DNA of 64,000 nucleotides from Chlorobiales bacterium. GTDB taxonomy: Bacteria; Bacteroidota; Chlorobiia; Chlorobiales; Chlorobiaceae. Made by a program: the position numbers and the translations under genes. The DNA is taken from contig JAKSDC010000019.1 in NCBI GenBank assembly GCA_022360275.1, forward strand, positions 2,529 through 66,528. Direction: 5' to 3'. Under the pieces are notes generated by a model. It saw only the letters and a list, made by a program, of their open reading frames with translations. It was not told the DNA's origin and did no database searches. Shown here in pieces: positions 783 to 37,261 of the stretch (position 1 is its first letter; the number at the start of each line of letters is the position of its first letter).

Positions 783-897
783 GCACCTCTATTTATTGTC
801 ATGAGCGTTTCAAGTGCAAGGCGAACGGAACACAGAAACCCTTTCCTATCCGCTCAACGATGTAATTGAATCGTGGAATAAATAAATAGAAGTGCCC
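783..897. repeat. Palindromic repeat element, short class (copy A)
   Basis: Terminal IR gcacctctatttatt (783-797) / aataaatagaagtgc (881-895), 14/15 match. Near copy at 20685-20798. Core caaggcgaacggaacacagaaacc matches the reverse complement of copies B and D. Confidence 0.85.
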
Positions 898-918
898 TAA
901 AAAAAAGGAGTTACACAC

Positions 919-1275
919 ATGTTAATGATCAGAGCAATTGTCCGGCCAGCCAAAGCACAGGATGTCATGCAGGGACTGCTCGACGCAGGGTATCCGGCCG
1001 TAACGAAAATACCGGTTGTAGGACGAGGCAAGCAGCGGGGCCTCAGGGTCGGAGATGTCGTTTATGACGAATTGCCCAAGGAAATGCTGGTAACCGTCGT
1101 TCCCGATGCTGACAAACAGTTCATCCTCGACGCGATCATGATGAACGCCAGGACAGAAGGAGAAGGCAAGTTCGGCGACGGTAAAATCTTTGTCTCCAAA
1201 GTTGAAGAGGTCTACACCATCAGTTCGGGACTCAAGGAAAACGAACCGGAAATGGCTGAATCAAAGGAGGCGTAA
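919..1275 (+). CDS. nifI1: PII-like nitrogenase regulator NifI1
   Basis: PII motifs GRGKQRG and GKFGDGKIFV; position directly after nifH; AAGGAG RBS at about 905. Confidence 0.92.
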   Translation: MLMIRAIVRPAKAQDVMQGLLDAGYPAVTKIPVVGRGKQRGLRVGDVVYDELPKEMLVTVVPDADKQFILDAIMMNARTEGEGKFGDGKIFVSKVEEVYTISSGLKENEPEMAESKEA

Positions 1276-1652
1276 TGAAAGAGATTATTGCAGTTATCAG
1301 GATGAAAAAAATGAATGAGACAAAGCAGGCGCTCATCGATGCCGGCATCTCTTCATTTACCTCCCTGGGACGAGTCCTTGGCAGAGGAAAAGGCCAAGTG
1401 CATTTCGATATCCTTCAGGGCGCCGAAGAAGGGTATCCCGAAGCGATCGAACAGCTTGGCGGCCCCCCTCGTCTGGTGGCAAAACGGCTCATCGCGATTG
1501 TCGTTCCCGACGAGCTGAAACAGGCCGCTATCGACACGATAGTAAAGACCAACCGGACGGGAAAACCCGGTGACGGGAAAATCTTTGTCACCGACATCAC
1601 CGACAGCATCAGGGTGCGCACAGGAGAAATCGGCGATGCAGCGCTTGTATAA
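1275..1652 (+). CDS. nifI2: PII-like nitrogenase regulator NifI2
   Basis: MKEIIAVIR, GRGKG and GKPGDGKIFV...IRVRTGE; TAATG overlap with nifI1. Confidence 0.92.
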   Translation: MKEIIAVIRMKKMNETKQALIDAGISSFTSLGRVLGRGKGQVHFDILQGAEEGYPEAIEQLGGPPRLVAKRLIAIVVPDELKQAAIDTIVKTNRTGKPGDGKIFVTDITDSIRVRTGEIGDAALV

Positions 1653-1685
1653 ACACAATTTATGATAAAAACGGAGACACAACTT

Positions 1686-3311
1686 ATGGAGTCAAGAATA
1701 TTACCGGATCCCTCTGCGGTAAAGGAGGAACTGATCAAGAAATATCCGCCGAAAGTTGCAAAAAAGAGAGGCAAAGCGATCATCGTCAACGATCCGGAAG
1801 AAATTCCTCAGGTACAGGCGAACATCCGTACCATACCCGGCATTATCACTCAAAGGGGCTGCTCTTACGCTGGTTGTAAAGGTGTGGTTTTAGGACCGAC
1901 AAGAGACATCGTCAATCTGGTCCATGGCCCGATCGGCTGCAGTTTTTACGCCTGGCTGACCCGGCGGAACCAGACCCGTCCTGACGGGCCTGAGGGTGAA
2001 AACTTCATGACCTATTGTTTCTCGACCGACATGCAGGAAGAGCATGTGGTTTTCGGGGGCGAGAAAAAACTCAAACAGGCGATCCAGGAAGCCTACGATC
2101 TCTTCCATCCGAAAGCGATCGGCATCTTCTCTACCTGTCCGGTAGGCCTTATCGGCGACGACGTTCATGCCGTCGCCAAGGAGATGCGTGAGAAACTCGG
2201 CGACTGTAACGTTTTCGGGTTCAGCTGCGAAGGGTACAAAGGCGTCAGCCAGTCGGCCGGGCACCATATCGCCAACAACCAGGTCTTCAAACACGTTGTG
2301 GGTCTCGATGATTCAGACAAGGGCGGAAAGTTCAAAATCAACATGCTCGGCGAATACAATATCGGTGGCGACGCATTTGAAATCGAACGGCTGCTCGAGA
2401 AATGCGGTATCACCATGGTTGCAAGCTTCAGCGGCAACTCGACGATCAATCAGTTCGAAAACTCGCACACCGCTGACCTGAACGTCGTCATGTGCCACCG
2501 CTCGATCAACTACATGGCCGAGATGATGGAGACCAAGTACGGCATCCCGTGGATGAAAGTCAACTTTATCGGAGCGGAGTCAAGCGCGAAATCACTGCGC
2601 AGAATAGCGCAGTACTTCGAAGATGACGAACTGATGGCAAGAGTTGAAGAGGTAATAGCAGAAGAAATGCCCGCAGTCTCGTCGGTAATAGAAGAGATCT
2701 ATCCGAAAACAAAAGGCAAACTCGCAATGCTGTTTGTCGGCGGTTCGAGGGCGCACCACTACCAGGAGCTCTTTGGTGAACTCGGTATGGAAACACTCTC
2801 GGCAGGATACGAGTTCGGGCACCGCGACGACTATGAAGGCCGCAGGGTTATCCCGAACATCAAGATCGATGCCGACAGCAAAAATATCGAGGAGTTGAAA
2901 GTTACCGCCGACCCGGGAAAATACCGGCCGAGAAAAACCGAAGAAGAACTTGCAAAGCTGAAAGAGGCCGGTCTCGACATCAGGGATTACGAAGGCATGA
3001 TGCCGGATATGAAAAAAGGCTCCCTGGTCATTGACGATATCAGTCACTATGAAAGCGAGAAACTGATCGAGCTCTACAAACCCGACATCTTCTGTGCCGG
3101 CATCAAGGAAAAATATGTCGTCCAGAAAATGGGGGTTCCGCTCAAGCAGTTGCACAGCTACGATTACGGAGGTCCTTATGCAGGCTTTACCGGCGCGATC
3201 AACTTCTACAAGGATATCGACCGAATGGTAAACAGCCGTGTGTGGAAACTGATCCAGGCACCATGGGAAGAAGCTCCAAGCGAGCTGGAAGCGGACTACG
3301 TGACACAATAA
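1686..3311 (+). CDS. nifD: Nitrogenase MoFe protein alpha chain NifD (group II type)
   Basis: P-cluster Cys (RGCSYAGC, HGPIGC, STCP); FeMoco ligands CHRS and QLHSYDY; group II-type insertion near KIDADSKNIEEL. Start 1686 chosen from the GGAG RBS at about 1674 (ORF track gives 1662). Confidence 0.97.
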   Translation: MESRILPDPSAVKEELIKKYPPKVAKKRGKAIIVNDPEEIPQVQANIRTIPGIITQRGCSYAGCKGVVLGPTRDIVNLVHGPIGCSFYAWLTRRNQTRPDGPEGENFMTYCFSTDMQEEHVVFGGEKKLKQAIQEAYDLFHPKAIGIFSTCPVGLIGDDVHAVAKEMREKLGDCNVFGFSCEGYKGVSQSAGHHIANNQVFKHVVGLDDSDKGGKFKINMLGEYNIGGDAFEIERLLEKCGITMVASFSGNSTINQFENSHTADLNVVMCHRSINYMAEMMETKYGIPWMKVNFIGAESSAKSLRRIAQYFEDDELMARVEEVIAEEMPAVSSVIEEIYPKTKGKLAMLFVGGSRAHHYQELFGELGMETLSAGYEFGHRDDYEGRRVIPNIKIDADSKNIEELKVTADPGKYRPRKTEEELAKLKEAGLDIRDYEGMMPDMKKGSLVIDDISHYESEKLIELYKPDIFCAGIKEKYVVQKMGVPLKQLHSYDYGGPYAGFTGAINFYKDIDRMVNSRVWKLIQAPWEEAPSELEADYVTQ

Positions 3312-3336
3312 CAACAAGCAGCCCTATGTAAATCAA

Positions 3337-3478
3337 GGGCACCACTATTAATTTGCTGCGCACCATGATTACGTCGTTGGCCGGTGCTCGAAATCCTCAT
3401 GTACCGTATGTACACTCCGGTTTCTGCGCTCCGTCCGCCTTGTACTCAAGGCGCTCGCGACAATTAATAGCGGTGCCC
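3337..3478. repeat. Palindromic repeat element, long class (copy B), RPE-1-like
   Basis: Terminal IR gggcaccactattaatt / aattaatagcggtgccc, 16/17. A 62-nt core is 60/62 identical to copy D at 37120-37261. Confidence 0.9.
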
Positions 3479-3494
3479 CAAAAAAGGAGACAAC

Positions 3495-4877
3495 ATGCTA
3501 TTACGGCATACAAAAAAAGAGGTGATGGAGCGCCAAGCGCTCACCATCAATCCGGCAAAAACCTGTCAGCCCATAGGCGCTATGTATGCAGCTCTCGGCA
3601 TCCACGGCTGTCTGCCGCATAGCCACGGATCACAGGGATGCTGCTCATACCACCGCAGTACCCTGACAAGGCACTACAAGGAACCTGTCATGGCGGCAAC
3701 AAGCTCGTTCACGGAAGGTGCATCGGTTTTCGGTGGACAGGCAAACCTGGTAACGGCGATCAACAACATTTTTACGGTCTATGAACCGGATTTGATCGCC
3801 GTCCACTCGACCTGCCTTTCTGAGACAATTGGTGACGACCTGCAGCAGATTGTCACCAAGGCAAAAGATGACGGCAAGATCCCCGAAGGGAAACATGTGA
3901 TTTACGCGCCGACACCGAGTTTCGTCGGATCGCACGTTACCGGATACGCAAACATGGTTGCGGCCATGGCCGAACATTTTGCGGAAAACACCGGTAAACA
4001 GCTCGATCAGATCAACATCGTAGCGGGCTGGATGGAACCTGCCGACATGCGTGAAATCAAACGCCTCGCAAAAGAGCTCGGAGCAAACATCCAGCTTTTC
4101 CCGGATACATCCGATGTGCTCGATGCGCCGCAGACAGGCAAGCATGTGTTCTATCCGAAAGGAGGCATTTCCGTACCGGCGCTGAAAAGTACCGGCGACA
4201 GCAAATCTTCGATCGCCCTGGGCTGTTTCAGCGGGGAACCGGGCGCCATTGCTCTCGATAAAAAATGCAGTGTCCCGTTCAAAACCGAAGACATTCCTGT
4301 CGGGCTCCGGGCTACCGACCGTTTCCTGATGAGACTGAGCAAGGCCGCGGGCGTAACAATACCCGAGTCGATAACGGACGAGAGAGGGAGGCTGGTCGAT
4401 CTCATGACCGATATGGAACAATACTTCCATGGCAAAAAAGTCGCGCTTTTCGGTGATCCTGATGATCTCATTCCACTGACGGAATTTCTGCTCGACCTGG
4501 ACATGAAACCTGTCCATATCGTCAGCGGCACACCGGGCAAGCGTTTTGAACAGCGCATGCGGGATATCCTCGCTGACAGTGTTCCTGATGCCAACATCAA
4601 AAACGGCCCCCAGGCCGACATCTATCTCTTGCATCAGTGGATCAAGAACGAACCGGTCGACCTTCTTATCGGCAACACCTACGGGAAGTACATCGCCCGC
4701 GACGAGGATATACCGTTCGTCCGCTATGGCTTCCCGATCCTCGACCGGGTCGGCCACAGCTACTTCCCGAGCGTCGGCTATATGGGAGGTCTCAGACTCG
4801 CCGAAAAAATACTGGAGGTTCTTATGGATCGACAGGACCGCGACGCACCTGAAGAGTCGTTCGAACTTGTGATGTAG
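3495..4877 (+). CDS. nifK: Nitrogenase MoFe protein beta chain NifK
   Basis: KTCQPIG, HGSQGCCSY and STCLSETIGDD; AAGGAG RBS. Confidence 0.97.
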   Translation: MLLRHTKKEVMERQALTINPAKTCQPIGAMYAALGIHGCLPHSHGSQGCCSYHRSTLTRHYKEPVMAATSSFTEGASVFGGQANLVTAINNIFTVYEPDLIAVHSTCLSETIGDDLQQIVTKAKDDGKIPEGKHVIYAPTPSFVGSHVTGYANMVAAMAEHFAENTGKQLDQINIVAGWMEPADMREIKRLAKELGANIQLFPDTSDVLDAPQTGKHVFYPKGGISVPALKSTGDSKSSIALGCFSGEPGAIALDKKCSVPFKTEDIPVGLRATDRFLMRLSKAAGVTIPESITDERGRLVDLMTDMEQYFHGKKVALFGDPDDLIPLTEFLLDLDMKPVHIVSGTPGKRFEQRMRDILADSVPDANIKNGPQADIYLLHQWIKNEPVDLLIGNTYGKYIARDEDIPFVRYGFPILDRVGHSYFPSVGYMGGLRLAEKILEVLMDRQDRDAPEESFELVM

Positions 4878-4881
4878 AAAA

Positions 4882-4917
4882 TTGTTGAACTGTTGACTTG
4901 TTGAGTCGTTGAATTGT
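4882..4917. repeat. Degenerate 8-mer tandem array (YTGTTGAN family)
   Basis: ttgttgaa-ctgttgac-ttgttgag-tcgttgaa; related arrays at 9173-9204 (opposite strand), 18304-18327 and 61005-61020. Confidence 0.75.
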
Positions 4918-4926
4918 GGCACAAAA

Positions 4927-4958
4927 GAGGCGAGGTTCAAATCCCTCGTCTCTCTCCA
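4927..4958 (+). terminator. Hairpin between nifK and nifE (possible attenuator or stabiliser)
   Basis: Stem gaggcgagg / cctcgtctc, loop ttcaaatc, weak pyrimidine tail. Confidence 0.45.
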
Positions 4959-5024
4959 TCAAAAGAGAAAGGAACTGCGTTAAACGATTCGATGCATGGC
5001 ACTGAACCAGAAGATTGAAGTCCA

Positions 5025-6389
5025 ATGGATAAAATTGAAATACTCGAAGGAAGAAAGAAACAGGTCTTCGAAAAAACGAAAGACACAGACGCATTCGACA
5101 TCAAGTGCGAAACCACCAGTCTTTCGGGCTCCGTCAGTCAGAGGGCCTGTGTTTTTTGCGGCTCGAGAGTCGTACTCTACCCGGTAGCTGACGCCCTTCA
5201 TGTCGTCCACGGCCCTATCGGATGTGCCGCCTATACTTGGGACATCCGCGGAGCCGTCTCTTCAGGACCCGAATTGCACCGCCTGAGCTTTTCAACCGAC
5301 CTCCAGGAGATGGATGTCATTTACGGCGGAGAGAAAAAACTGAAAGCCTCTCTCGGCGAGCTTATCGACCAGTACAAGCCGAAAGCGGCGTTCATTTACT
5401 CGACCTGCATCATCGGGCTTATCGGAGACGATATCGATGCCGTCTGCAAGAAAATTTCAGCGGAAAAAGGCATTCCGGTCCTTCCCGTGCATTCGGAAGG
5501 ATTCAAAGGAACCAAGAAAGACGGGTATAAAGCCGCCTGTGACGCGCTGATGAAAATCGTCGGGACCGGCTCGACCGAAGGAATAGGAAAATACAGCATC
5601 AATATTCTCGGCGAGTTCAACCTTGCCGGCGAAGCATGGATCATCAAGGATTACTACGAACAGATGGGCATCGAGGTTGTCTCGACCATGACCGGAGACG
5701 GCAGGGTTGATGACATAAGGCGTTCACATGGCGCCTCGCTGAATATCGTACAATGCTCGGGTTCGATGGTCAGGCTGGCAAAGATGATGGAAGAAAAATA
5801 CGGCATTCCGTACCTCAGAGTCTCGTACTTCGGTATCGAGGATATGTCGAAAGCGCTCTATGATGTCGCGGCACATTTCGGCGACAACCCGGCTATCCTG
5901 GAAGCCGCCAAAAAAGTTGTCAGCCGTGAGGTGGGAGAACTTTATCCGCAGCTTCTGGAATTTCGAAAAGCGCTCAGCGGGAAAAAAGCCGCGATCTATG
6001 TCGGAGGAGCGTTCAAGGCGTTTTCGCTTATCAAGGCCCTGGCCTCGATAGATATGGATGTCGTCCTGGCCGGTTCGCAAACCGGCAACAAGGATGACTA
6101 TGCAGGATTGAAAGACATGTGCGATGAGGGGACCATCATTGTTGACGACTCGAATCCTGTCGAACTCTCGAAATTCATTCTCGAAAAAGAAGCCGATCTG
6201 CTGATAGGAGGTGTGAAGGAACGACCGATCGCCTATAAACTCGGTGTCGGCTTCTGTGATCACAACCATGAAAGAAAAATACCGCTTGCCGGTTTTGTCG
6301 GCATGCTGAACTTCGCAAAAGAGGTCTACCAGTCTGTCATGAGCCCGGTATGGCAATTTGCTCCGAGAAAAGGAGGAGGTCAATTATGA
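5025..6389 (+). CDS. nifE: FeMoco scaffold NifE
   Basis: SQRACVFCGSR, HGPIGC, YSTCIIGLIGDD and DHNHERK; follows nifK. Confidence 0.96.
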   Translation: MDKIEILEGRKKQVFEKTKDTDAFDIKCETTSLSGSVSQRACVFCGSRVVLYPVADALHVVHGPIGCAAYTWDIRGAVSSGPELHRLSFSTDLQEMDVIYGGEKKLKASLGELIDQYKPKAAFIYSTCIIGLIGDDIDAVCKKISAEKGIPVLPVHSEGFKGTKKDGYKAACDALMKIVGTGSTEGIGKYSINILGEFNLAGEAWIIKDYYEQMGIEVVSTMTGDGRVDDIRRSHGASLNIVQCSGSMVRLAKMMEEKYGIPYLRVSYFGIEDMSKALYDVAAHFGDNPAILEAAKKVVSREVGELYPQLLEFRKALSGKKAAIYVGGAFKAFSLIKALASIDMDVVLAGSQTGNKDDYAGLKDMCDEGTIIVDDSNPVELSKFILEKEADLLIGGVKERPIAYKLGVGFCDHNHERKIPLAGFVGMLNFAKEVYQSVMSPVWQFAPRKGGGQL

Positions 6390-7738
6390 AAACTGCAAAA
6401 ACAGCCACCCAGAACGCCTGTAAACTTTGCAATCCGCTTGGTGCATGCCTGGCGTTCAAGGGCATAGAAAAATGCGTACCGTTCCTGCATGGGTCCCAGG
6501 GATGCGCCACCTATATCCGGCGCTACCTTATCAGCCATTTCAAGGAACCGGTAGACATTGCTTCGTCCAACTTCAATGAGGATACAGCGGTTTTCGGCGG
6601 AAGCCACAATCTGAAACTCGGTCTGCAGAACATCACGAAACAATACAAACCGGAAGTTATCGGCATTGCGACGACCTGTCTTTCCGAAACCATCGGGGAC
6701 GATGTCGATATGATCCTCAGGGAGTATACTGAAAATGCCGACCCGAACCAGCCAATCCCCCTGATGATACATGCCTCGACGCCAAGTTACCAGGGCAGCC
6801 ATATCGACGGGTTTCACGCGGCATTGAGAGCAACGGTCGAAAAGCTTGCAGAAGGAGGTCCTAAACAAAACCTGTTGAATCTCTTTCCCAACATGGTCTC
6901 GCCTGCAGATCTGAGGTATCTCAAAGAGATTCTGGAAAACTTCAGCCTGCCCTCGGTGATTCTTCCGGATTACTCGGAAACGCTTGACGGAGGACCGTGG
7001 GGAGAGTATCACAGAATTCCAAAAGGGGGAACGCCGCTGAATACCATCCTCAAATGCGGAACGGCTGCAGCAAGCATCGAGTTTACCTCGATCCTCGCTG
7101 AGGATAAATCACCAGCCGGATACCTGGAAGAAAAATTCGGAGTCCCCCATTACCGGTTTTGCCTCCCGATCGGCATCGGACAGAGCGACAAGTTTTTCGA
7201 ACTGCTCGAAAGACTGTCGGAGAAACCGATGCCGGAACGATACGAAGACGAGCGTCGACGGCTTGTCGATGCATATGCGGACGGGCATAAATATGTATTC
7301 GGTAAAAAAGCAATTGTGTACGGCGAAGAAGATCTTGTGATCGCACTGACGGTCTTTCTGAGAGAAATCGGCATAACACCGGTCCTTTGCGTATCGGGCG
7401 GCAAGAGCGGTTTTCTGAAAAAACGTCTTGCCGAGCTGGTGCCGGACCTCGACAACCTCGGGATACAGGTTCGCGACGGTGCAGATTTCGTCGACATCGA
7501 AGAGGAAGCAAAAAAACACAAACCGGACCTTTTAATCGGCAACAGCAAAGGTTTTACCATGTCCCGGAAGAACCGGATTCCAATGATCCGTGTCGGGTTT
7601 CCGATTCATGACAGGTTCGGCGGCCAGCGGCTGCACCACATCGGATACAGGGGAACCCAGGAACTGTTTGACAGAATCGTGAACACAGTTATCGAACACA
7701 GACAGAATTCATCACCAATCGGCTACACATACATGTAA
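6386..7738 (+). CDS. nifN: FeMoco scaffold NifN
   Basis: NACKLCNPLG, HGSQGCATYIRR and TTCLSETIGDD. The ATG at 6386 overlaps the nifE stop (ATGA) and follows a GGAGG RBS. Confidence 0.95.
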   Translation: MKTAKTATQNACKLCNPLGACLAFKGIEKCVPFLHGSQGCATYIRRYLISHFKEPVDIASSNFNEDTAVFGGSHNLKLGLQNITKQYKPEVIGIATTCLSETIGDDVDMILREYTENADPNQPIPLMIHASTPSYQGSHIDGFHAALRATVEKLAEGGPKQNLLNLFPNMVSPADLRYLKEILENFSLPSVILPDYSETLDGGPWGEYHRIPKGGTPLNTILKCGTAAASIEFTSILAEDKSPAGYLEEKFGVPHYRFCLPIGIGQSDKFFELLERLSEKPMPERYEDERRRLVDAYADGHKYVFGKKAIVYGEEDLVIALTVFLREIGITPVLCVSGGKSGFLKKRLAELVPDLDNLGIQVRDGADFVDIEEEAKKHKPDLLIGNSKGFTMSRKNRIPMIRVGFPIHDRFGGQRLHHIGYRGTQELFDRIVNTVIEHRQNSSPIGYTYM

Positions 7739-7749
7739 GGGGACGTACC

Positions 7750-9024: not shown

Positions 9025-9030
9025 GGTAAG

Positions 9031-9065: not shown

Positions 9066-9085
9066 CTGGAAACCTGTTTTTTCCA

Positions 9086-18851: not shown

Positions 18852-19811
18852 TTGAAACACCTCACAGGATTATCAGGCATACCAGCGTCAAGAATTAACG
18901 AAATTCTTGACAGGGCTGTTTTTCATAAAGATCTGTTTCTGGATGCAGAAAGCGCTATCCCCCCTGCCCTTCAGGGAAAACGCATTGTTCTTGCGTTTTT
19001 CGAAAACTCTACAAGAACCCGGTTTTCATTTGAAATCGCAGCGCGTAATCTCGGTGCCGTTACCCTTAATTTCAATGCCTCATCGAGCAGCGTCACGAAA
19101 GGCGAGAGTATTGTCGATACCATAAAAAACCTGGAGGCAATGCAGGTTGACGCTTTCGTCATTCGTCACCCATCTTCCGGCTCAGCCGAACAGATAAGCC
19201 GTATAACCGACAAACACGTTGTTAATGCCGGGGACGGAACTCATGAGCATCCTACCCAGGCACTGTTGGACATTTTTACGTTGCGGGATTATTTTGGATC
19301 GCTGCAGGATGCGAAAATCATGATTCTGGGAGATATACTGCACAGCCGTGTAGCCCGGTCGAATATTTTCGGGCTTACAACACTGGGCGCACAAATCGGG
19401 ATCTGCAGCCCGGTCTCCCTTCTTCCTGCCGATACGGATTCTCTCGGCGTAAGGGTGTTCACCTCTATAGACGACGCCATCAGATGGGCAGATGCTGCAA
19501 TTGTACTCCGTCTTCAGCTGGAAAGAACAACCGGCGGCTATCTGCCCTCTCTTGAAGACTACTCACTGAACTTCGGGCTTACCGACGAACGTCTCGAGAA
19601 AATTCGTAAACATATGCTTGTCCTTCACCCAGGACCGGTCAACAGGGAAATCGAGATATCAAGCAATGTAGCCGACCGCATTCAGCCACCCGGTTACTCA
19701 AAAAGCGTCATGCTTGAACAGGTAACGAACGGGGTAGCTGTACGAGCCGCTGTTCTGGAAATGCTGTTTGCCGAAACAACCAAAGCCGCCAAACTTAGCA
19801 CTAATAAATAG
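18852..19811 (+). CDS. pyrB: Aspartate carbamoyltransferase catalytic subunit
   Basis: FFENSTRTRFSFE, NAGDGTHEHPTQALLD and HPGPVNR; TTG start. Confidence 0.96.
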   Translation: MKHLTGLSGIPASRINEILDRAVFHKDLFLDAESAIPPALQGKRIVLAFFENSTRTRFSFEIAARNLGAVTLNFNASSSSVTKGESIVDTIKNLEAMQVDAFVIRHPSSGSAEQISRITDKHVVNAGDGTHEHPTQALLDIFTLRDYFGSLQDAKIMILGDILHSRVARSNIFGLTTLGAQIGICSPVSLLPADTDSLGVRVFTSIDDAIRWADAAIVLRLQLERTTGGYLPSLEDYSLNFGLTDERLEKIRKHMLVLHPGPVNREIEISSNVADRIQPPGYSKSVMLEQVTNGVAVRAAVLEMLFAETTKAAKLSTNK

Positions 19812-19818
19812 TAAAACC

Positions 19819-20673
19819 ATGCGGAAAAGTTACGCCACTCTGATCACGCTGCTGTTATTTATTGCATCCACCCCTGCAACATTTGCCGCCCCTACGTTAC
19901 GGACAATGTTCACCCCATTGCTTGCCGATCCCCTTGAACCACGCATTGCTGTTATGCCGCGGCTTGATGAAGACTACCTTGAGCTTGATATCGGCACGTC
20001 CGCCGATCTGCTTCAGACCAAAAACGGCCGCTTTGCGTTCGGCATCGATTTCGCCACTTACTCTCTCCTGGGTATGGAAGACAATTTTAAGTTTCCGGTC
20101 GATACGATCGATTACCTTTTCGGGGTAAGTTTTACATGGAAAAAGCCTCTTGACAAGGAGACTCTGCCGTTTGACGATCTTTGGGCAAGACTTCGTATCA
20201 GCCATATCTCCGCCCATTTTGAAGACGGACATTACGATGAGGAGGCCGATGAATGGATCAATGAGGAAGACAGTCCTTTCGGCATCCCGTTCACCTACAG
20301 CCGGGAATTCATAAATCTCGTCCTTGCTCTTTCCTCGGAAAAGTACCGTATTTATCTCGGCTATCAGTACCTTTTCCATACCATACCGGACGAAATCAAC
20401 CGCCACTCGCTCCAGGCCGGTGCTGAACTGTCGACTCCCGGAAACACCTATCTTGCAGCAGATTTCAAATTGCTTCCTGAATGGAATAATGAACTGCATA
20501 GAACCGACGGGTTCCGTGGCACATGGAGCCTTCAGGCCGGCTGGAGACTTTCAGTGCTTGGTCTTGACAATGTCCGCTTTGCCTATAACTATTATAACGG
20601 CCTGAGTAGTCACGGCATGTATTTTTATGATGAAGAAAGTTTCAGCTCACTTGGAGTGATTGTTGATTTGTAA
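19819..20673 (+). CDS. Exported, probable beta-barrel protein (DUF1207-like)
   Basis: Signal peptide; FTPLLADPLEPR and RISHISAHFEDG resemble DUF1207 motifs as I recall them; alternating aromatic beta-strands. Confidence 0.6.
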   Translation: MRKSYATLITLLLFIASTPATFAAPTLRTMFTPLLADPLEPRIAVMPRLDEDYLELDIGTSADLLQTKNGRFAFGIDFATYSLLGMEDNFKFPVDTIDYLFGVSFTWKKPLDKETLPFDDLWARLRISHISAHFEDGHYDEEADEWINEEDSPFGIPFTYSREFINLVLALSSEKYRIYLGYQYLFHTIPDEINRHSLQAGAELSTPGNTYLAADFKLLPEWNNELHRTDGFRGTWSLQAGWRLSVLGLDNVRFAYNYYNGLSSHGMYFYDEESFSSLGVIVDL

Positions 20674-20684
20674 CAAAATTTTAC

Positions 20685-20798
20685 GGGCGCCTCCATTTGT
20701 CATGAGCGGCTCAAGTGCAAGGCGAACGGAGCGCAGAAATCCCTTTCTATCCGTTCAACGAAGCAATTGAGCAGCGGAATAAATAAAGAGAGGTGCTC
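20685..20798. repeat. Palindromic repeat element, short class (copy C)
   Basis: Colinear with copy A (tgtcatgagcg..caagtgcaaggcgaacgga..cagaaa..aataaataaa..gtgc); degenerate terminal IR. Confidence 0.85.
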
Positions 20799-21111: not shown

Positions 21112-22170
21112 ATGAAAAAACTGTTATCGCTTGTATTTGGACTCGCGATACTTGCTACGTCCGTGACTACGGCGGAAGCAGGTATCAAGATCAGCGGTGA
21201 CGCACAGGTTCGCCCGAGAGGTGAATTCACCAAGACCAAAGTAGACGGCGAAGAAACGCAAAGTCAGGAAGAGCTTTACTGGCTCTACAGACTTCGCCTG
21301 AAAATCGCTGCCGACCTTGGTGAAGGATTCTTTCTCAAAGCGCTGCTTGCAAACCATTCAGCGGGGTGGTTTGCTACAATAGGCGGTGACAAAGGGCCTG
21401 CATTCCCATCAAATCTTTCTGATTTCGGCCCCAACCACATGTACTTCGGGCGGATGATGCAAAATTCGCACTACGTTATGGGCTGGATGCCGGTCAACAG
21501 TTTCAATAATCCGATCTATGACCTTACGGTCTACCCTAGTCAGCCGTTGGGTATTCCTTACTTTCTGTTTGGAAACGACCGTATTTTCGGACTCAATTAC
21601 GGAGCTAAAGTCGGTCCGGGCGAGTTGAATGCCTCTCTCCTCGTGCTTGATGATTATCTTAAAGATACTGACGGCTTCTTCAGGGATGAGTATGCAATTC
21701 ATCTGATGTACAAAACCAACATCGGCGACATCACCATAGATCCGCAGCTTCTGGCAGCAATTACTGATTCTAACCTCTTTAGCATGGGCTACAACAATGT
21801 AGCTCCTTGGACATTCGGAACCAATGTTGTCATTCCTGCTGACGACATTAAATTCACACTGAGTGGGTTCTATACCACCTGTGACGACTCCGGTGTCGAT
21901 TACGACGGATATCTTTTCAGGGTCAAGGCTGAGCGCGGCCCGATCAGAGCCTGGGTCGACTACAGCAGCCTGAGCGATGACAGCTTCGGAGCTTCCGACG
22001 AGTACAAGAACATGTATGTATGGGCACAGTATAACTGGAAGGTTCATGAGTCCTCGATGGGCAGCTTCACGCTTTCTCCGACTGTACGCTATCTGACTAC
22101 AGACGAGAATAACGGTGACGAGGAATACCAGCGTCTGAGAACCGAACTTTGGGCACAGGTCACATTCTGA
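21112..22170 (+). CDS. Outer-membrane beta-barrel / putative porin
   Basis: Signal peptide ending in AEA; amphipathic beta-strands; terminal Phe (LWAQVTF, BAM signal). Confidence 0.75.
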   Translation: MKKLLSLVFGLAILATSVTTAEAGIKISGDAQVRPRGEFTKTKVDGEETQSQEELYWLYRLRLKIAADLGEGFFLKALLANHSAGWFATIGGDKGPAFPSNLSDFGPNHMYFGRMMQNSHYVMGWMPVNSFNNPIYDLTVYPSQPLGIPYFLFGNDRIFGLNYGAKVGPGELNASLLVLDDYLKDTDGFFRDEYAIHLMYKTNIGDITIDPQLLAAITDSNLFSMGYNNVAPWTFGTNVVIPADDIKFTLSGFYTTCDDSGVDYDGYLFRVKAERGPIRAWVDYSSLSDDSFGASDEYKNMYVWAQYNWKVHESSMGSFTLSPTVRYLTTDENNGDEEYQRLRTELWAQVTF

Positions 22171-28183: not shown

Positions 28184-28201
28184 GCACCGGTACCTGATTG
28201 T

Positions 28202-29083: not shown

Positions 29084-29123
29084 CGAACCATAATTCCTAT
29101 GATAATACCTTATCCACTCAATC

Positions 29124-30405: not shown

Positions 30406-30455
30406 GGCTTTGAAATGCGGAGAGACTTGCTTAGGTTGCTCATCAAGGTTTACAA

Positions 30456-31196
30456 ATGTATCCCGGCAAAATAAAAGCCCTTGAAATGGAACCGTCAGAG
30501 CAGAAACCCGAAAAAGAGATACCATCGATTGAAACCTCCGGCCATGAAGAAAAGCTTGAACGGCTGGTCGATTTTTTGTTACTCAATAAAAATCTCATCA
30601 TTGCGGTAACTGTCGGCGTCCTTGCCGCTGGCGCAGGTCTCTTTTTCTATCAGCAGCAGCACCGGACAACTGAAGCTTCGGCTTACCGCCTGTTATCCGC
30701 TGCCGAGTCGGTTGCCGATGCAGGAAACTGGCAACTGGCAATCGATGGAAACGATTCCATAAAAGGTCTCAGACAGATTGTTAAGGAATACGGATCGACC
30801 CCGAGCGGCAACCGGGCAAAAATCCTTATCGGAGACAGCTTTCTCGCTTTAGGAAAAATTGATTCCTCTTTATCATACTACCAGGAATATGCTGGAAAAA
30901 ACCCTGATCTTGCCGCTTCGGCAATAGCCGGTGAAGCTACATGCCACCTCCTTAACCAGGAATTTTCCGAAGCCGCAGCTGCGTTTGAAAAAGCATCCGA
31001 AACAGCGGAAAACCAGGCTCTCAAAGCCTCATACCTTTCGGATGCGGCAGACACGTATCGGTTGAATGGCAGTATAGACAAAGCAGTTGATCTTTATAAA
31101 CAGGTCATTCGGCAATATCCGGGTTTTGCCGCCACGGCAAATGCACAGGAATCCCTGCTTGCGCTTGCCGGAAAAACAGGCAACGTTGATCTGTAG
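30456..31196 (+). CDS. Membrane-anchored TPR protein (YfgM-like)
   Basis: One N-terminal TM helix followed by TPR repeats. Confidence 0.75.
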   Translation: MYPGKIKALEMEPSEQKPEKEIPSIETSGHEEKLERLVDFLLLNKNLIIAVTVGVLAAGAGLFFYQQQHRTTEASAYRLLSAAESVADAGNWQLAIDGNDSIKGLRQIVKEYGSTPSGNRAKILIGDSFLALGKIDSSLSYYQEYAGKNPDLAASAIAGEATCHLLNQEFSEAAAAFEKASETAENQALKASYLSDAADTYRLNGSIDKAVDLYKQVIRQYPGFAATANAQESLLALAGKTGNVDL

Positions 31197-31226
31197 AACA
31201 AACCACAACCAATTATACACCAGAAA

Positions 31227-31715
31227 ATGAGCACCAAATACAAGATTAAAACGAACCTTGGCGATATTACCGTATCCCTCTATGACGATACCCCTCAGCA
31301 TAAGGAAAACTTCGAAAAGCTTGTCGATGAAAAGTACTATGACGGCATTCGCTTTCACCGGGTCATCGAAGGATTCATGATCCAGACCGGAGACCCGCTT
31401 TCGCGTAGCGATGACAACCGTATGCTGCACGGCACGGGTGGACCGGATTATCGTATTCCGGCGGAGCTTAAACATCCTAACGAGAAAGGGAGCCTTGCAG
31501 CCGCAAGAGACAATAATCCTCAAAAAGCATCTTCCGGCAGCCAGTTTTACATCAACCAGGCTGACAATGATTTTCTGGACGGTGAATATACCGTTTTCGG
31601 CAAGGTAACCGACGGGATCGATGTTGTAGATACAATCGCTGCCGTTGAGACGGATTTCAATGACAACCCCGTTGACCCGGTGACCATTGAGACCATCGAG
31701 ATAATCCAGGCCTGA
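31227..31715 (+). CDS. Cyclophilin-type peptidyl-prolyl isomerase
   Basis: FHRVIEGFMIQTGDP, GSQFYI, YTVFGKV. Confidence 0.95.
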   Translation: MSTKYKIKTNLGDITVSLYDDTPQHKENFEKLVDEKYYDGIRFHRVIEGFMIQTGDPLSRSDDNRMLHGTGGPDYRIPAELKHPNEKGSLAAARDNNPQKASSGSQFYINQADNDFLDGEYTVFGKVTDGIDVVDTIAAVETDFNDNPVDPVTIETIEIIQA

Positions 31716-31867
31716 GCTGAAACAGCCTATGTCACGGCTTGCCGACAAATAATCGAAAACAGCATTGGACAAAAGCCGCTATTCAATAGTCGTTTCCATC
31801 CTGTTGCTGTTACAGGAAGATTGAAGAATCGCTCAATAGACCGTAAAAAAGAATTCGTCAGAGCAGA

Positions 31868-32563
31868 ATGGGTAGAATAGCACAAAATCTGCAGCAAATA
31901 GATGAAGAGATCCGGTCTGTTTGCAGCAAGGCCGGCAGGAACCCGTCCGATATACGTCTGATTGCTGTTTCGAAAACCAAACCCGCAGCACTGGTAAAGG
32001 AGGCCTATGATGCAGGCCAGCTGGATATCGGTGAAAGCTATGTCCAGGAGTTTCTCGAAAAACAGGGCTCTGAAAAGCTTTCAGGTCTTCCGTTACAATG
32101 GCATTTCATCGGACACCTTCAGTCAAACAAGGTGAAAGATATTGTCGGTAAAGTTTCCCTGATCCACGGCATCGACAAAATCGGAACAGCACGGGAGTTG
32201 TCAAAACGGGCTTCAGCAAAAAACGTCGCAGCCGATTACCTCATCGAGATCAATACTTCCGGAGAAAGTTCAAAATTCGGCCTGTCCCCGGACGCACTCC
32301 TCTCTGAAGCCCCCTATTTTTTCGATCTCCCGAATATCCGTCTCAGAGGCCTCATGACTATTGCTTCGCCTGACAGGAACAAGGCCAGAGAGGAGTTTCG
32401 TATGCTTGCCAAACTGCTTGAACAGCTTAAGAAAATTTCGCCCAGCCCGGCTCTTCTGACAGAACTTTCCATGGGTATGAGTCAGGATTACGACATCGCC
32501 ATCGAAGAGGGAACAACAATGATCCGTATAGGAACCGCCATCTTCGGATCACGGCAGCGATAA
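31868..32563 (+). CDS. yggS: PLP homeostasis protein YggS/PlpHP
   Basis: AVSKTKP, WHFIGHLQSNK, LSMGMSQD, IRIGTAIFG. Confidence 0.95.
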   Translation: MGRIAQNLQQIDEEIRSVCSKAGRNPSDIRLIAVSKTKPAALVKEAYDAGQLDIGESYVQEFLEKQGSEKLSGLPLQWHFIGHLQSNKVKDIVGKVSLIHGIDKIGTARELSKRASAKNVAADYLIEINTSGESSKFGLSPDALLSEAPYFFDLPNIRLRGLMTIASPDRNKAREEFRMLAKLLEQLKKISPSPALLTELSMGMSQDYDIAIEEGTTMIRIGTAIFGSRQR

Positions 32564-32820
32564 AAGAGAATTGCTGAACTGTTGCGCCGTATGCCGCGAT
32601 GGCAGTGACCATCCATAAGGGTCTTTCTATGTATTGTCTGAAACCAATCAGCCATCTCGACCCGGCAATCAGAGCAAGGATACCGGGGCAATCGTCAAAT
32701 ATCACTTATTATCGAGCATAATTTGAATCGGTCGGTTCAGGATTTTATATTGCACGATTGATTATTTTGCAAAGTTTTTGCCCTTGAACCGAGGTCGTTA
32801 ACGCCGGGGTCCGTTACCAT

Positions 32821-34065
32821 ATGCCGTACTCAAATTCACCTGTCTTTATTCCGGCACAGCGTGTCCAGAATTATCATTACGCCATTCGCAACATTGTCAG
32901 CAATGCGCGGCGTCAGGAAGAACAGGGGAACACAGTCACCTACCTGAACATCGGTGACCCGGTACTGTATGATTTTCAACCGCCTGAAGAGCTTGTCGAA
33001 GCAACGGTTCTCGCTCTAAGGCAGGGACATAACGGCTACGCCCCATCATGCGGAAAAAAGGATGCAGTCGAGGCAATCGCCGAAGATGCTCTTTCACGCG
33101 GGATCCCGGTCTCCCCGGATAACATCATCATTACCTTTGGCGCTTCGGAAGCGGCAGACCTTGTATGTACTGCGATGCTGAATCCCGGTGACGAGGTGCT
33201 CTGCCCTTCCCCCGGCTATCCTCTCTATAATGCAATAATCGCCAAACTGAACGCAAGGGAGCTCCAGTACAAACTTGACCCTGACAACAGCTGGCATCCG
33301 GACCCGGAGGAGATTGAAAGCAAAATAACCCTCCGAACAAAGATTCTCGTTGTCATCAATCCGAACAACCCGACGGGGGCACTTTATCCTCCCGACTTGC
33401 TAAAGGAACTGGTCGATATTGCCCGCAGACACCGGCTGCTTATTATCACCGACGAGGTCTATCACAAACTTGTCTACGAAGAAGCACATACACCCCTTGC
33501 TTCGATGGCTGAAAATGATGTTGCGATAATCACCATTGACAGCTTGTCGAAAAACTATATGGCCCCCGGCTGGAGAATCGGCTGGCTTGCCATCACCAAC
33601 AGCCATCTTATTCCGGATGTACATTTTGCGTTTGTAAAACTTGCAGATGCAAGGCTTTGCGCCCCAATGGCCCCACAGTACGCCATCAAAGCCGCTATGA
33701 AATTGAGAAAGGACTATATTGAAAGCGTTATGAGCCGTCTGCGTGCTCAGAGGGATATTACCGTAGACATGCTGAACGCTATTCCGGGGATCAGTTGTAA
33801 CCACCCGAAAGGAGCATTTTACGTCATGGGCAAGGTCGATCTTGCCATGTCTCCATTCAATTCCGATGAAGAGTTTGTGCTGAAGCTTCTGCAGGAAAAA
33901 CAGGTGCTTTTCGTTCACGGCTCCGGATTTGGAACCGATCCCCTGCAAGGCTTTTTCAGGGTAGTCTTTCTGCCCGATGTATCGACGCTGAAAAAAGTGT
34001 ACAGCGATCTCGGAGATTTCGTCAAACAATACCAGCAACCTTTTTTCAAAGAACCCATAACATAA
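32821..34065 (+). CDS. Class I/II PLP aminotransferase (AlaA-like)
   Basis: LNIGDP, INPNNPTG, DEVY and SLSK..GWRIG (PLP Lys). Confidence 0.9.
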   Translation: MPYSNSPVFIPAQRVQNYHYAIRNIVSNARRQEEQGNTVTYLNIGDPVLYDFQPPEELVEATVLALRQGHNGYAPSCGKKDAVEAIAEDALSRGIPVSPDNIIITFGASEAADLVCTAMLNPGDEVLCPSPGYPLYNAIIAKLNARELQYKLDPDNSWHPDPEEIESKITLRTKILVVINPNNPTGALYPPDLLKELVDIARRHRLLIITDEVYHKLVYEEAHTPLASMAENDVAIITIDSLSKNYMAPGWRIGWLAITNSHLIPDVHFAFVKLADARLCAPMAPQYAIKAAMKLRKDYIESVMSRLRAQRDITVDMLNAIPGISCNHPKGAFYVMGKVDLAMSPFNSDEEFVLKLLQEKQVLFVHGSGFGTDPLQGFFRVVFLPDVSTLKKVYSDLGDFVKQYQQPFFKEPIT

Positions 34066-34077
34066 AACTGCTTCACC

Positions 34078-34899
34078 ATGATTGAACAACGTGCTAAAAT
34101 CCAGGAGGCCGTCTCGTTTATCCGCTCGAAAACCAGTGACGAATATCCTGTTGGAATCGTTCTCGGAACCGGTCTCGGCGCCCTGGCAAAAGAAATAAAT
34201 GTAGAACTGTCTCTCGATTACGGAGACATCCCCTATTTCCCCATTTCGACGGTTGAAACCCATCATGGCAAACTTATATTCGGCACTCTTGCGGGAAAAA
34301 AAGTTGTTGCAATGCAGGGACGGTTCCATTTCTACGAAGGCTATTCGATGCAGCAGATTGTGTTTCCTGTCAGAGTCATGAAACATCTCGGCGTAAAAAC
34401 CTTGGGCATAACCAATGCCTGCGGGGGGCTCAACCCGGCATTCAGTAAAGGCGACATCATGCTTATCGATGACCACATCAACTTCCTGGGAACCAATCCT
34501 CTTATCGGACCGAACGATCAGGAAATCGGACCGAGATTCCCGGACATGTGCGCCCCGTACTCCCCGGGAATTCTCGACATCGCCGAACAGGTTGCGCTCG
34601 AACATAAAATCAAGGTCCAGCGGGGTGTTTATGTCGCTCTTTCCGGTCCCTGCCTTGAAACCCGCGCAGAGTATCGCATGCTCCGTACCATCGGTGCAGA
34701 TGTTGTCGGCATGTCAACTGTTCCGGAAGTCATTGCCGCAGTACATCAGGGAACTGAAGTATTCGGCATGTCGATCATCACCGACGAGTGTTTCCCGGAC
34801 AACCTGGAACCCGTCAGTATCGAGGAAATTATTGAGGTCTCAAATGAAGCCGAACCGAAAATGACAACAATTTTCAAGAGCGTTGTCGAAAGACTTTAA
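34078..34899 (+). CDS. Trimeric-type purine nucleoside phosphorylase (possibly MTA/5'-deoxyadenosine phosphorylase)
   Basis: LGTGLG, QGRFHFYEG, TNACGG, GPCLET, VGMSTVPE, and ITD where human PNP has ITN. Confidence 0.9.
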   Translation: MIEQRAKIQEAVSFIRSKTSDEYPVGIVLGTGLGALAKEINVELSLDYGDIPYFPISTVETHHGKLIFGTLAGKKVVAMQGRFHFYEGYSMQQIVFPVRVMKHLGVKTLGITNACGGLNPAFSKGDIMLIDDHINFLGTNPLIGPNDQEIGPRFPDMCAPYSPGILDIAEQVALEHKIKVQRGVYVALSGPCLETRAEYRMLRTIGADVVGMSTVPEVIAAVHQGTEVFGMSIITDECFPDNLEPVSIEEIIEVSNEAEPKMTTIFKSVVERL

Positions 34900-34919
34900 C
34901 TTTTAAACACTTAACCACA

Positions 34920-35981
34920 ATGATCGACGCCGTTTCTTTTGAAAACAATACCCTTGGCTATCTCGACCAGCGATTTCTTCCGTTGAAAGAGGATTACATC
35001 AGGACAAAAGATTACCGGGAAGCTATCGAGGCCATCAAAACCCTTGCCGTCAGAGGTGCTCCGCTCATTGGTATCGTCGCAGGCTATACCGTTATGCTGG
35101 GGCTTAACAGTTACGAGGGTAACAAGGAAGAGTTTCCTCCCTACTTTGAAAACCTCATACAGGAAGTCGAAGCTTCAAGACCCACCGCCGTCAACCTTTT
35201 CTTTGCCACTGCACGCATGAAAGAGGTATACGATGCTCACTTTGCGTCGGATTCTCTCGAAGAACTCTTTTCGAAGATGCTTGTTGCCGCGAAAAAAATC
35301 CATGCTGACGAGATTGCAAACTGCGATAACATGGCCCGTCACGGCGTGGAACTCATCAAACAGGATCTTGCCGAAACCCTCAGGACGAGAAAGCTCAATG
35401 TTCTTACCCACTGCAATACCGGTACTCTGGCAACAGGAGGGTCGGGAACTGCCCTGGGGGTCATCAAACATGCCTGGAAGGAAGGTCTTATTGAAAAAGT
35501 CATCACGGCGGAAAGCCGGCCTCTGCTGCAGGGACTGCGGCTTACCGCATGGGAACTTGAAAACGAAAACATTCCTTTCATTTCGATTTCAGATTCATCT
35601 TCGGCCTTCCTCATGCAAAAAGGCATGATCGATTTCGGCATTGTCGGTGCTGATAGAATTGCGGCCAACGGAGACACCGCAAATAAAATAGGGACGTTCG
35701 CCCATGCTGTCAGCGCATCGATTTACAATGTACCATATTACATTGCAGCCCCGGTATCCACTATCGACATAACCATCAATGACGGCTCGCAAATCCCTAT
35801 CGAAGAACGAAGTGCCGATGAGCTGAGGACAATTTTCGGTACACAGGTTGCCGCACCATCCACACCCGTTCTGAATTATGCGTTCGATGTGACACCCAAT
35901 CAGTACATCCGGGGTATCGTCACGGATAAAAAAGCCGTTGTCGGCAGTTATTCCGAAGAATTGCAAAAACTTGTCGACTAA
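34920..35981 (+). CDS. mtnA: S-methyl-5-thioribose-1-phosphate isomerase
   Basis: LDQR, VRGAP, SRPTAVNL, THCNTGTLAT, GADRIAANGDTANKIGT. Confidence 0.95.
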   Translation: MIDAVSFENNTLGYLDQRFLPLKEDYIRTKDYREAIEAIKTLAVRGAPLIGIVAGYTVMLGLNSYEGNKEEFPPYFENLIQEVEASRPTAVNLFFATARMKEVYDAHFASDSLEELFSKMLVAAKKIHADEIANCDNMARHGVELIKQDLAETLRTRKLNVLTHCNTGTLATGGSGTALGVIKHAWKEGLIEKVITAESRPLLQGLRLTAWELENENIPFISISDSSSAFLMQKGMIDFGIVGADRIAANGDTANKIGTFAHAVSASIYNVPYYIAAPVSTIDITINDGSQIPIEERSADELRTIFGTQVAAPSTPVLNYAFDVTPNQYIRGIVTDKKAVVGSYSEELQKLVD

Positions 35982-36006
35982 AACCAGGGGCTGAACACAA
36001 ACCGTC

Positions 36007-36190
36007 AAAGAGGCTGTCTCAAAAGGGCGGCCTCGCGTATTTTGAGCCGACAATCGACATCTCTCCTGACTGTCATCCATCCCCGGGCCTGCCCCGTGAA
36101 ATCAAAAGCATCTGTAAAATCTCTTGGATGCCCGGATTTCCGTAAAAACAAAAAAGCTGCCTCATAATCGACTTATGAGACAACCTCTTT
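36007..36190. mobile_element. MITE-like 184-bp element
   Basis: Ends aaagaggctgtctcaaaag / cttatgagacaacctcttt (17/19 IR); an 18/20 copy of the left end at 22211-22230; internal REP-like hairpin. No transposase in the window. Confidence 0.55.
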
Positions 36191-36425
36191 TTTATTCCGC
36201 AATTGTTCGTTATACTTTTTCTATAGAGAAAAAACTTTTCTACCGAGTAAATCAAGCAGTACACATCCCTGAACGCCCCTACAAAAAATTATTAGTGTTG
36301 CAGCACAACGAACGATTGCAGTTCGGGAAACCTATAGTTTTATAGCTGACAACGTTCATCCTTTTCAACAAGCAAACTGTTTAAGGCCGAATCAGGATTA
36401 ACCCCGGAGAACTTTCAATCCAGAG

Positions 36426-36821
36426 ATGAAAAACAGGTTACATAAGGAAAAAAACGAACCATCCGACAACTCGTTGCAGATCTTCAACTACAGTGACTTT
36501 CTTGATCGTGTGATGGGAGACCAGGAGCTGGCCACGAGTATTCTCGAAGAGTTTGCAGGATTGATCGGGCAACATGCAGAAAAGTTGCGCCATGCGGTTG
36601 AATCCGGAGATCATGAAAGCATCAGACAGATCGGCCACATGATCAAAGGCGAATCGGGCAACATCAGCGCCCCCGCCCTGTATGAAAGCTCCTATGCGAT
36701 TGAAAAAGCGGGAAAAGCTCAAAACAGCAGCGAACAGAACGAACTTCTCCCGGTGCTGCTTGCAGACATTGACAATCTAACACACGCAATCCGGGAAGTT
36801 TTGCAAAAAGAGGGCAAGTAA
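36426..36821 (+). CDS. Stand-alone HPt (histidine phosphotransfer) protein
   Basis: RVMGDQEL..ILEEF and GHMIKGESGNISA (H.+KG motif); all-helical, 131 aa. Confidence 0.88.
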   Translation: MKNRLHKEKNEPSDNSLQIFNYSDFLDRVMGDQELATSILEEFAGLIGQHAEKLRHAVESGDHESIRQIGHMIKGESGNISAPALYESSYAIEKAGKAQNSSEQNELLPVLLADIDNLTHAIREVLQKEGK

Positions 36822-37119
36822 AATTGCACCTTCAATGCATTCCATCGACCACAACTCTCTTCACAAAGGCAACGGGCATTGTTTTCTTTGCCTGTTTGGC
36901 AATTGTTTTCCAGCATTTTCTTACAACCCGACCTGAAACATCCGGCTCATCTTTTGTTCAATTGCATGCACCGATATAATTCCGTACAATTAGGCGAAAC
37001 TGCGTTGGGTGCTTTACATTGTCCCGAAAAAAGTAAACAGGACACAGGAGACAAATAGCAAAAAATGACTACGTAATAGTTACCAATGGAATAATGGGAA
37101 AACGCATTTCAATATTCAA

Positions 37120-37261
37120 GGGCACCTCGATTAATTTGTTGCACGACCTGAATACTTCGTTGGTCGGTGCTCGAAATCCTCATGTACTCTATGTACACTC
37201 CGGTTTCTGCGCTCCGTCCGCCTTGTCTTCAGCTCGCTCTCGACAATTAATAGAGGTCCCC
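37120..37261. repeat. Palindromic repeat element, long class (copy D)
   Basis: Terminal IR 15/17; 60/62 core identity to copy B; same 142-bp length. Confidence 0.9.

Follow-up and report, generated by a model that had tools for sequence, protein, structure and literature searches.

A probable IS5-type miniature transposon family of Chlorobiaceae with a conserved hairpin core

Background

The stretch of DNA analysed here (hereafter the window; 64,000 nucleotides, C109:2529-66528 of the Chlorobiales genome G000, which comprises 2.37 Mb in 222 contigs) contains four copies of an imperfect palindrome, two of which lie in gaps between nif genes. What kind of element is this, and what accounts for its presence in these gaps? 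A first-pass annotation had proposed that it is akin to the Rickettsia palindromic element RPE-1. Our analysis suggests instead, with a probability of roughly 0.85, that the four sequences are copies of a family of non-autonomous DNA transposons (miniature inverted-repeat transposable elements, MITEs) of Chlorobiaceae with IS5-type ends. As far as our literature search showed, this is a previously undescribed IS5-type MITE of Chlorobiaceae; the search found no publication describing MITEs of Chlorobium or the six-copy Escherichia coli family discussed below.

Results

Four copies in the window

The element occurs in the window in two forms: a long form on the plus strand (copies B and D, 142 bp each) and a short form on the minus strand (copies A and C). 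Copy A (781..897; 117 bp including a decayed first 2 nucleotides) occupies the gap between nifH, whose stop is at 775, and nifI1, which starts at 919. Copy B (3337..3478) is placed after nifD (stop 3311) and ahead of nifK (start 3495), with the AAGGAG of nifK located 6 nucleotides beyond the end of the copy. Copy C (20685..20798; 114 bp) directly follows the stop of the open reading frame (ORF) 19768-20673, upstream of the ORF 21112-22170, and copy D (37120..37261) is located between the ORF 36426-36821 and an ABC-transporter ORF (37302-39107). All four copies are intergenic, C and D being placed between unrelated genes. The terminal inverted repeats pair at 16 of 17 positions in B and at 15 of 17 in D, and the 62 columns that B and D have in common differ at two positions only, both in the apical loop. 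Copies A and C align to the reverse complement of B and D, but lack 25-26 nucleotides that include the TGTAC/GTACA hairpin. Each of the four copies folds end to end into one long imperfect hairpin; against shuffled sequences, the z-scores range from -4.9 to -6.8 in long copies and from -3.1 to -3.8 in short ones.

The first-pass annotation had described four copies in two size classes and both orientations, and this is borne out at the positions given above, except that copy A, in which the terminal GGG has decayed to ATG, starts at 781 rather than 783. Also confirmed are the 142-bp length of B and D, their terminal repeats paired at 15-16 of 17 positions, and their shared 62-nucleotide core with two loop mismatches. 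More generally, the view that the element is structured, palindromic, and mobile or formerly mobile, that it has a short subfamily, and that no mobiliser is encoded within the window is supported by the results described below.

Transposon-type ends and target duplications

The units are non-coding, measure 142 or about 115 bp, and are bounded by 17-bp terminal inverted repeats (GGGCACCTCTATTAATT) in which 15-17 of 17 positions are paired; no frame of the elements has a Pfam or NCBIfam match. With boundaries set on GGGCACC...GGTGCCC, identical 4-bp flanks were found in 19 of 45 copies, whereas 2000 trials with permuted flanks gave 2.2 such copies on average and 8 at most. The same 45-copy test gave no signal of flank identity at 2, 3, 5 or 6 bp. 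The duplicated target has the consensus T-W-W-A and is often preceded by C and followed by G. In the window, copy D is bordered by an exact 4-bp duplication (TCAA), and the flanks of copy A (CAAA and TAAA) match at three of four positions.

A scan for the terminal repeat outside the known copies returned two loci in G000, on contigs C126 and C33, each of which runs off the contig end. At both loci, the end GGGCACCTCTAATAACTGAG is followed by unrelated sequence that encodes the carboxy-terminus of a DDE_Tnp_1 transposase on the other strand. Relatives carry the complete insertion sequence (IS), which is 1303 bp long, has the ends GGGGATCTCTATTTATTC and GGGCACCTCTAAGAATTG, and makes up a separate contig of its own in one genome (G015); an IS end is also read as GGGCACCTCTAA.., paired with GGGGATCTCTATTTATTC. 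These ends are of the GGGCACCTCTA type, which we take as the IS termini. The IS encodes a transposase of 352 amino acids, which matches NF033581, a model of the IS5 family, with 280 bits (cut-off 140). The outermost 11-12 nucleotides of the element match the GGGCACC end of the IS exactly, and in the subfamily GGGCACCTCTAAAAACTT the match extends further.

These comparisons of ends suggest that the element may be mobilised in trans by an IS5-family transposase. An IS5-family DDE transposase, encoded elsewhere, would bind both ends in trans, and staggered cuts of 4 bp would let the unit insert between genes where the sequence is AT-rich, gaps within operons such as nifH-nifI1 and nifD-nifK included.

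A similar arrangement is known from Pseudomonas syringae pv. phaseolicola, where MITEPsy1 is associated with ISPsy2 of the IS5 family, is flanked by a 4-nucleotide duplication at CTAG or YTAA, and has been demonstrated to transpose (Bardaji et al. 2011, PMC3189936). Both MITEPsy1 and the present family are short, non-coding, multi-copy and intergenic, have ends that copy those of an IS5-family IS, and duplicate an AT-rich tetranucleotide target (CTAG or YTAA in the former, T-W-W-A in the latter). MITEPsy1 is a 100-nucleotide unit with 6 copies and a narrow range, whereas the present family consists of 142- or 115-bp units with about 80 matches per genome and spans a whole bacterial family. In addition, MITEPsy1 was caught in the act of transposing, whereas the mobility of the present family is deduced from comparisons; the two are likened here by description.

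A solo IS5-type end without an adjacent transposase (GGGCACCTCTAATAATTGAATTTTGATTAGCG) was also observed in G000, at C182:~6360-6434, and is probably a remnant of the IS.

Insertion polymorphism at the nif junctions

The nif junctions (776-3494 in the window; loci L025-L044) were compared across 16 genomes of the genus. The nifH-nifI1 junction is filled only in G000 and in its closest relative, G009; 13 congeners have a spacer of 17-32 nucleotides instead. The element at this junction is of the short form in G000 and of the long form in G009, and its arms are about 93% identical between the two (781-897 versus L026). At the same site, G009 has 37 nucleotides (GGAGTGTAC..GAGCACTG) where G000 has 12 unrelated ones (CTTTCCTATCCG). 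The 'distinct deletion subfamily' of the first-pass annotation is therefore real as a short form, but did not arise by simple deletion, since 37 nucleotides are swapped for 12 unrelated ones. The centre could have been converted by another copy, or a hot spot could have been hit independently more than once.

The 16 genomes show at least five states of the nifD-nifK junction, which is a hot spot for insertion. The junction is filled in G000 (copy B), carries the element inverted in G001, is differently filled in G002, and contains two tandem elements in G012; in G016 the contig breaks inside an element. A 31-bp unit consisting of ends only, with TTGA on both sides, is found in G008, and a footprint-like sequence, CTTGA-GGGCAG-TTGAG, in G009. 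The junction is empty in eight genomes. Just upstream of the element there is an older end remnant, which reads CCCTATGTAAAT in G000 and GGCACCACTATGCAAAT in G001 (L027). The opposite orientations in G000 and G001 could result from inversion in place or from excision followed by re-insertion. The element is probably tolerated in the nif operon, since the hairpin is not followed by a run of T in the direction of nif transcription. Junctions with and without the element in sister species thus provide natural pairs for studying the effect of intercistronic hairpins on the expression of nifH, nifD and nifK.

Size, age and spread of the family

An iterated nhmmer search of the 2.37-Mb genome G000 yielded 80 matches, of which 51 are near full length. 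Flanks are complete for 46 copies, 28 of them long and 15 short; the genome also contains shorter derivatives of 86-87 bp and a 38-bp unit made of ends only. The latter (C89:13934-13971) consists of just the two terminal repeats (GGGCGCCTCTATTTATTAATAAATAAAGAGAGGCGCCC). Of the seven matches that reach a contig end, six are near-identical; the element therefore sits at some of the assembly breaks, and a few of its copies may be young.

Within the genus, 16 of 17 genomes contain the family, as do 6 of 7 genomes of two sister genera; it is absent in 16 genomes of other families of the order. Named records that contain the core include, among the matches listed, Chlorobium (C. phaeobacteroides, C. 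ferrooxidans and sp. KB01), Pelodictyon, Chlorobaculum and Prosthecochloris, and some relatives have up to about 390 first-look candidates. The first-pass annotation had proposed looking for further copies in the genome, for empty orthologous sites and for covariation; the 80 nhmmer hits, the empty nif junctions and the significant covariation described below provide all three. For annotation, this means that the approximately 80 loci per Chlorobium genome are best labelled as a transposon, and not as regulatory RNAs or peptide-coding palindromes.

Several observations weigh against a MITE of this kind, or are left unexplained by it. The assembly contains no intact gene for the transposase, only the two carboxy-terminal fragments, both at contig ends. 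The presence of the IS and the load of MITEs are uncorrelated, in that G015 has an intact IS but 2 MITE matches and G010 has IS fragments and no MITE matches. The IS copy at locus L015 is without a clear target duplication of its own. Most copies are old, the pairwise identity of long copies having a median of 78% and a maximum of 97%. Finally, a plain MITE model leaves unexplained why conservation across phyla is higher in the interior than at the ends and why wobble pairs are biased toward one strand, as described in the following sections.

Covariation and strand bias in the hairpin

The structure was derived from 47 diverse long-form elements from Chlorobiaceae and Burkholderiales, which share a consensus hairpin of 48 pairs and an alignment with 33 invariant columns. 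In this alignment, 94.1% of cells are paired, compared to 81.0% in column shuffles (none of 500 reaching the observed value) and 30-40% when the partner is slid by 1-3 columns. Pairs changed on both sides number 34, as against 22 in the shuffles and 18-23 with slid partners, and the corresponding covariation scores are 0.419, 0.178 and 0.06-0.09. Covariation is seen in the outer helix, where it is expected for inverted ends, and also in the arms and in the apical stem, which occurs in the variants TGTAC/GTACA, CGTAC/GTACG, CGACC/GGTCG and TGCAC/GTGCA. The internal-loop nucleotides are invariant.

The inner helices also display a strand bias. On the strand that reads AAGGCGGACGG, they contain 239 G.U versus 40 A.C cells across 109 distinct copies (19 versus 6 columns, p=0.015), and differences between nearest neighbours show the same tendency (76 versus 22, p=4e-8), while the outer helix is nearly symmetric (58 versus 40); these counts come from related copies and not from independent events. 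The AAGGCGGACGG strand also folds better, with -65.8 versus -56.8 kcal/mol for copy B. Taken at face value, the wobble counts indicate selection on the single-strand folding of one strand. Where the flanking genes are co-directional, the element shows no significant preference for either orientation (33 to 21, p=0.13), and copies A and B point in opposite directions within one operon. This makes the propagation of the element itself a more likely target of the constraint than each host locus.

The element is modular: lineage-specific outer ends are combined with covarying arms and with exchangeable apical hairpins. Within it, the inner hairpin of about 108 nucleotides is under constraint for both sequence and pairing. 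A third type of apex, a TCCCGAC-loop-GTCGGGA hairpin, replaces the GTAC apex or the whole centre in some copies, namely C2:36511-36596, C145:386-472, C86:4109-4238 and C6:11523-11664 in G000 and the loci L114, L120 and L151. The looser pattern CCCGA..TCGGG has 44 matches in the genome versus 9-20 in shuffles. The TCCCGAC hairpin acts like an interchangeable module.

A core shared across phyla

The core of the family can be defined as a hairpin of about 108 nucleotides with the layout GTMGYGAGCG..AGGCGRACGGAGCRCAGAAACCGGA..stem-loop..UGAGGAUUUCGAGCACC..CAACG..CGCAR. In a scan for this pattern with one genome per species, the matches listed are mostly from Chlorobiaceae, with additional ones in Roseateles, Paucibacter, Mitsuaria, Polaromonas and Methylotenera. 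The elements in these five proteobacterial genera have the same length and architecture as those in Chlorobiaceae and are likewise multi-copy. Their inner 108 nucleotides or so are near-identical to those of the Chlorobiaceae elements, and read GTAGCGAGCGG..AGGCGGACGGAGCGCAGAAACCGGA-stem-loop-TGAGGATTTCGAGCACC..CAACGACG..CGCGCAGTA. The proteobacterial elements differ from those of Chlorobiaceae in the outer 15-17 nucleotides (for example GAGGCTGAGAACTTTT), and a 3-bp duplication of the TNA type is suggested by their flanks. Within Chlorobiaceae as well, the same interior is found between several unrelated outer ends. A search of three genomes returned no IS with Roseateles-type ends, and it is therefore for Chlorobiaceae only that the ends are established to follow those of a local IS.

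A covariance model of the core (R1) detects 6-31 copies in each of seven betaproteobacterial genomes, and has matches at E<=1e-5 in 61 of 301 evenly drawn genomes of Pseudomonadota, or about a fifth. E. coli K-12 (NC_000913.3) has six copies, all intergenic and unannotated, at 192652, 1007700, 1799011, 2543661, 2689539 and 2746326 (L176-L181); the sites include cysP-ucpA, qseG-glrK and ycbX-rlmL. These six copies may be the old 152-bp 'RSA' repeat family. A core copy of the enterobacterial type was also observed just upstream of a gene start in three near-identical prophage-like contigs from IMG/VR (L214-L216).

The window has no Rfam match at gathering thresholds. Below threshold, the family RF02228 (sX9) aligns to positions 3399-3472 of copy B, covering the apex and one arm, with 32.8 bits and E=1.4e-4; as the gathering score is 44, copy B is not a member of sX9 by the Rfam rule. 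The sX9 RNA of Xanthomonas campestris pv. vesicatoria shares the conserved blocks GUACACUCCGGUU and GCUCGC with copy B, but spans only half of the hairpin and is treated in the publications consulted as a small RNA, not as part of a transposon. It has been seen as a 75-nucleotide band on Northern blots in Xanthomonas (PMC3300014), and is among the most abundant small RNAs in Rfam (PMC9029176), an abundance that fits a dispersed repeat. As defined in Rfam, sX9 appears to represent part of a mobile palindrome with a very wide distribution. The earlier impression that the core resembles a known element is thus correct insofar as the core is widespread outside Chlorobi and partly covered by sX9, but not with regard to RPE-1.

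Other dispersed palindromes share general features with the present family. ERIC/IRU and Correia/NEMIS elements are also imperfect palindromes of 100-160 bp with inverted ends, intergenic or intra-operon locations and size variants, and are reported to be flanked by TA duplications. The centre of ERIC, which we take to be GGAGCTTACATAAGTAAGTGA on the basis of the ERIC primers, resembles GGAGTGTACATACGGTACATGA in the present family, by eye only. Kinship with ERIC is not supported, in that R1, when run on E. coli K-12 at E<=1, found only the six copies mentioned above, none of which is ERIC.

Discussion

Alternative explanations

Four alternatives to an IS5-type MITE have to be weighed. According to the first-pass annotation, the element is a relative of RPE-1, which inserts in frame into genes and adds peptide segments to their products. 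Both are small, palindromic and dispersed, their sizes are similar, and one frame is open across copies B and D. We nevertheless regard this kinship as extremely improbable. The RPE1 profile TIGR01045 has no match at E<=10 to 10 open stretches taken from all frames of A-D, and in a six-frame search of the whole genome it reaches no more than 16.4 bits (cut-off 30), and does so at places unrelated to the elements; matches below the cut-off also occur in 6 of 14 control genomes. Real coding sequences contain none of the 51 full copies; in the four cases where a long frame spans the element, it is either an upstream leader ahead of the actual start codon or a spurious antisense frame. No Rickettsia record is found, among the matches listed, in at least 113 stretches with the core pattern. 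The present family thus differs from RPE-1 in having IS-type ends and a target duplication, in not matching the RPE1 profile and in not inserting into coding sequences. Kinship is refuted by the profile search and by the absence of copies within genes; the claimed likeness of the core was an impression of the first-pass annotation. The frame that was noted as open across B and D does exist, but carries no weight, since 32 of the 51 full copies are open compared to 90% of random 141-bp genomic windows. The earlier interpretation is therefore half right: the element is structured and mobile and has subfamilies, but is no relative of RPE-1. An equally slim prospect is that the hairpins are targets of Ssn-type GIY-YIG single-strand nucleases, comparable to the Ssn-related motifs (SRMs) NTS and dRS3 of Neisseria. 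Three small GIY-YIG ORFs are present in the genome and the variant apex CGTTGTCCCGAT..ATCGGGAC loosely recalls NTS; the published SRM pattern (PMC11893778), on the other hand, has 9 matches in the genome versus 13-27 in shuffles, none of them inside elements. The small GIY-YIG ORFs, which the first-pass annotation had suggested seeking in linkage with the element, have no copy of it nearby.

The two remaining alternatives draw on the folding of the hairpin. The copies could be structured RNAs with a function in the host, either small RNAs like sX9 or stem-loops between cistrons, for instance those of the nif operon, that adjust the stability of the mRNA, rather than selfish DNA. The strong covariation (94% paired versus 81% in shuffles, with 34 doubly changed pairs), the strand-biased wobble pairs, the conservation of the core across phyla, the 75-nucleotide sX9 band on Northern blots (PMC3300014) and the location of copies A and B next to the ribosome-binding site of the following gene are what one would expect of such RNAs. 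The arrangement of the copies argues the other way: their orientation relative to co-directional flanking genes shows no significant bias (33 to 21, p=0.13), A and B are opposite in one operon, B is inverted in G001, and the nif junctions are empty in most congeners. Moreover, target duplications and IS-type ends show spread by transposition, and the match to sX9 is on the strand that folds less well. We consider a host function of this kind very improbable. Selection on one strand would also fit a REPIN-like hairpin element that is moved in single-stranded form by a tyrosine HUH transposase (RAYT or IS200-like), its IS5-like ends being incidental. The excess of G.U over A.C (239 versus 40, and 76 versus 22 in private changes), the conserved internal loops, the GTAG with which proteobacterial cores begin, as do REP heads of the REP/RAYT system, and the three Y1_Tnp proteins encoded in the genome are all in line with such an element. 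Yet the 4-bp target duplication is real, and HUH transposition does not produce one; the outermost 11-12 nucleotides are identical to the ends of an IS5-family IS; and the Y1_Tnp genes are bordered by an unrelated inverted repeat of their own (GGGGACGTTGT) and not by the element. A linked RAYT or TnpA gene had been suggested as something to look for, and none of the three Y1_Tnp genes is linked to the element. A REPIN-like origin is accordingly quite improbable.

A possible role for the inner hairpin

If, as is usually held, nothing but its ends matters in a MITE, the conservation of the core across phyla, together with its strand-specific pairing, is left unexplained. One extension of the MITE interpretation, which we regard as possible though doubtful, is that the inner hairpin is an independent, strand-specific functional module that acts in single-stranded form and has repeatedly been packaged between different IS5-family ends, the MITE serving as its vehicle. 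Such a module may span Chlorobiota and Pseudomonadota, as suggested by the invariant loops, by covariation in all helices, and by a G.U to A.C ratio of about 6:1, with an excess also in private changes. Possible roles for the hairpin include fold-back synapsis of the ends, a single-stranded intermediate in transposition or replication, and the binding of a host factor. If the inner hairpin is indeed such a module, the proliferation of the MITE would depend on it.

Additional features of the genome

The three small single-domain GIY-YIG ORFs of G000 (C92:1339-1548, C173:704-916 and C126:7701-7913) are located inside genes for four-helix-bundle proteins of the 23S rRNA IVS type. The three Y1_Tnp genes (C105:6805-7128, C102:762-1082 and C182:9726-9956) encode proteins of about 310 amino acids with an IS200-like domain, followed by a long carboxy-terminal extension with a helix-turn-helix-like end. 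The motif ACAACGTCCC(C) occurs just downstream of two of these three genes, and its inverse, GGGGACGTTGT, upstream of the gene on C102; the third gene runs off its contig.

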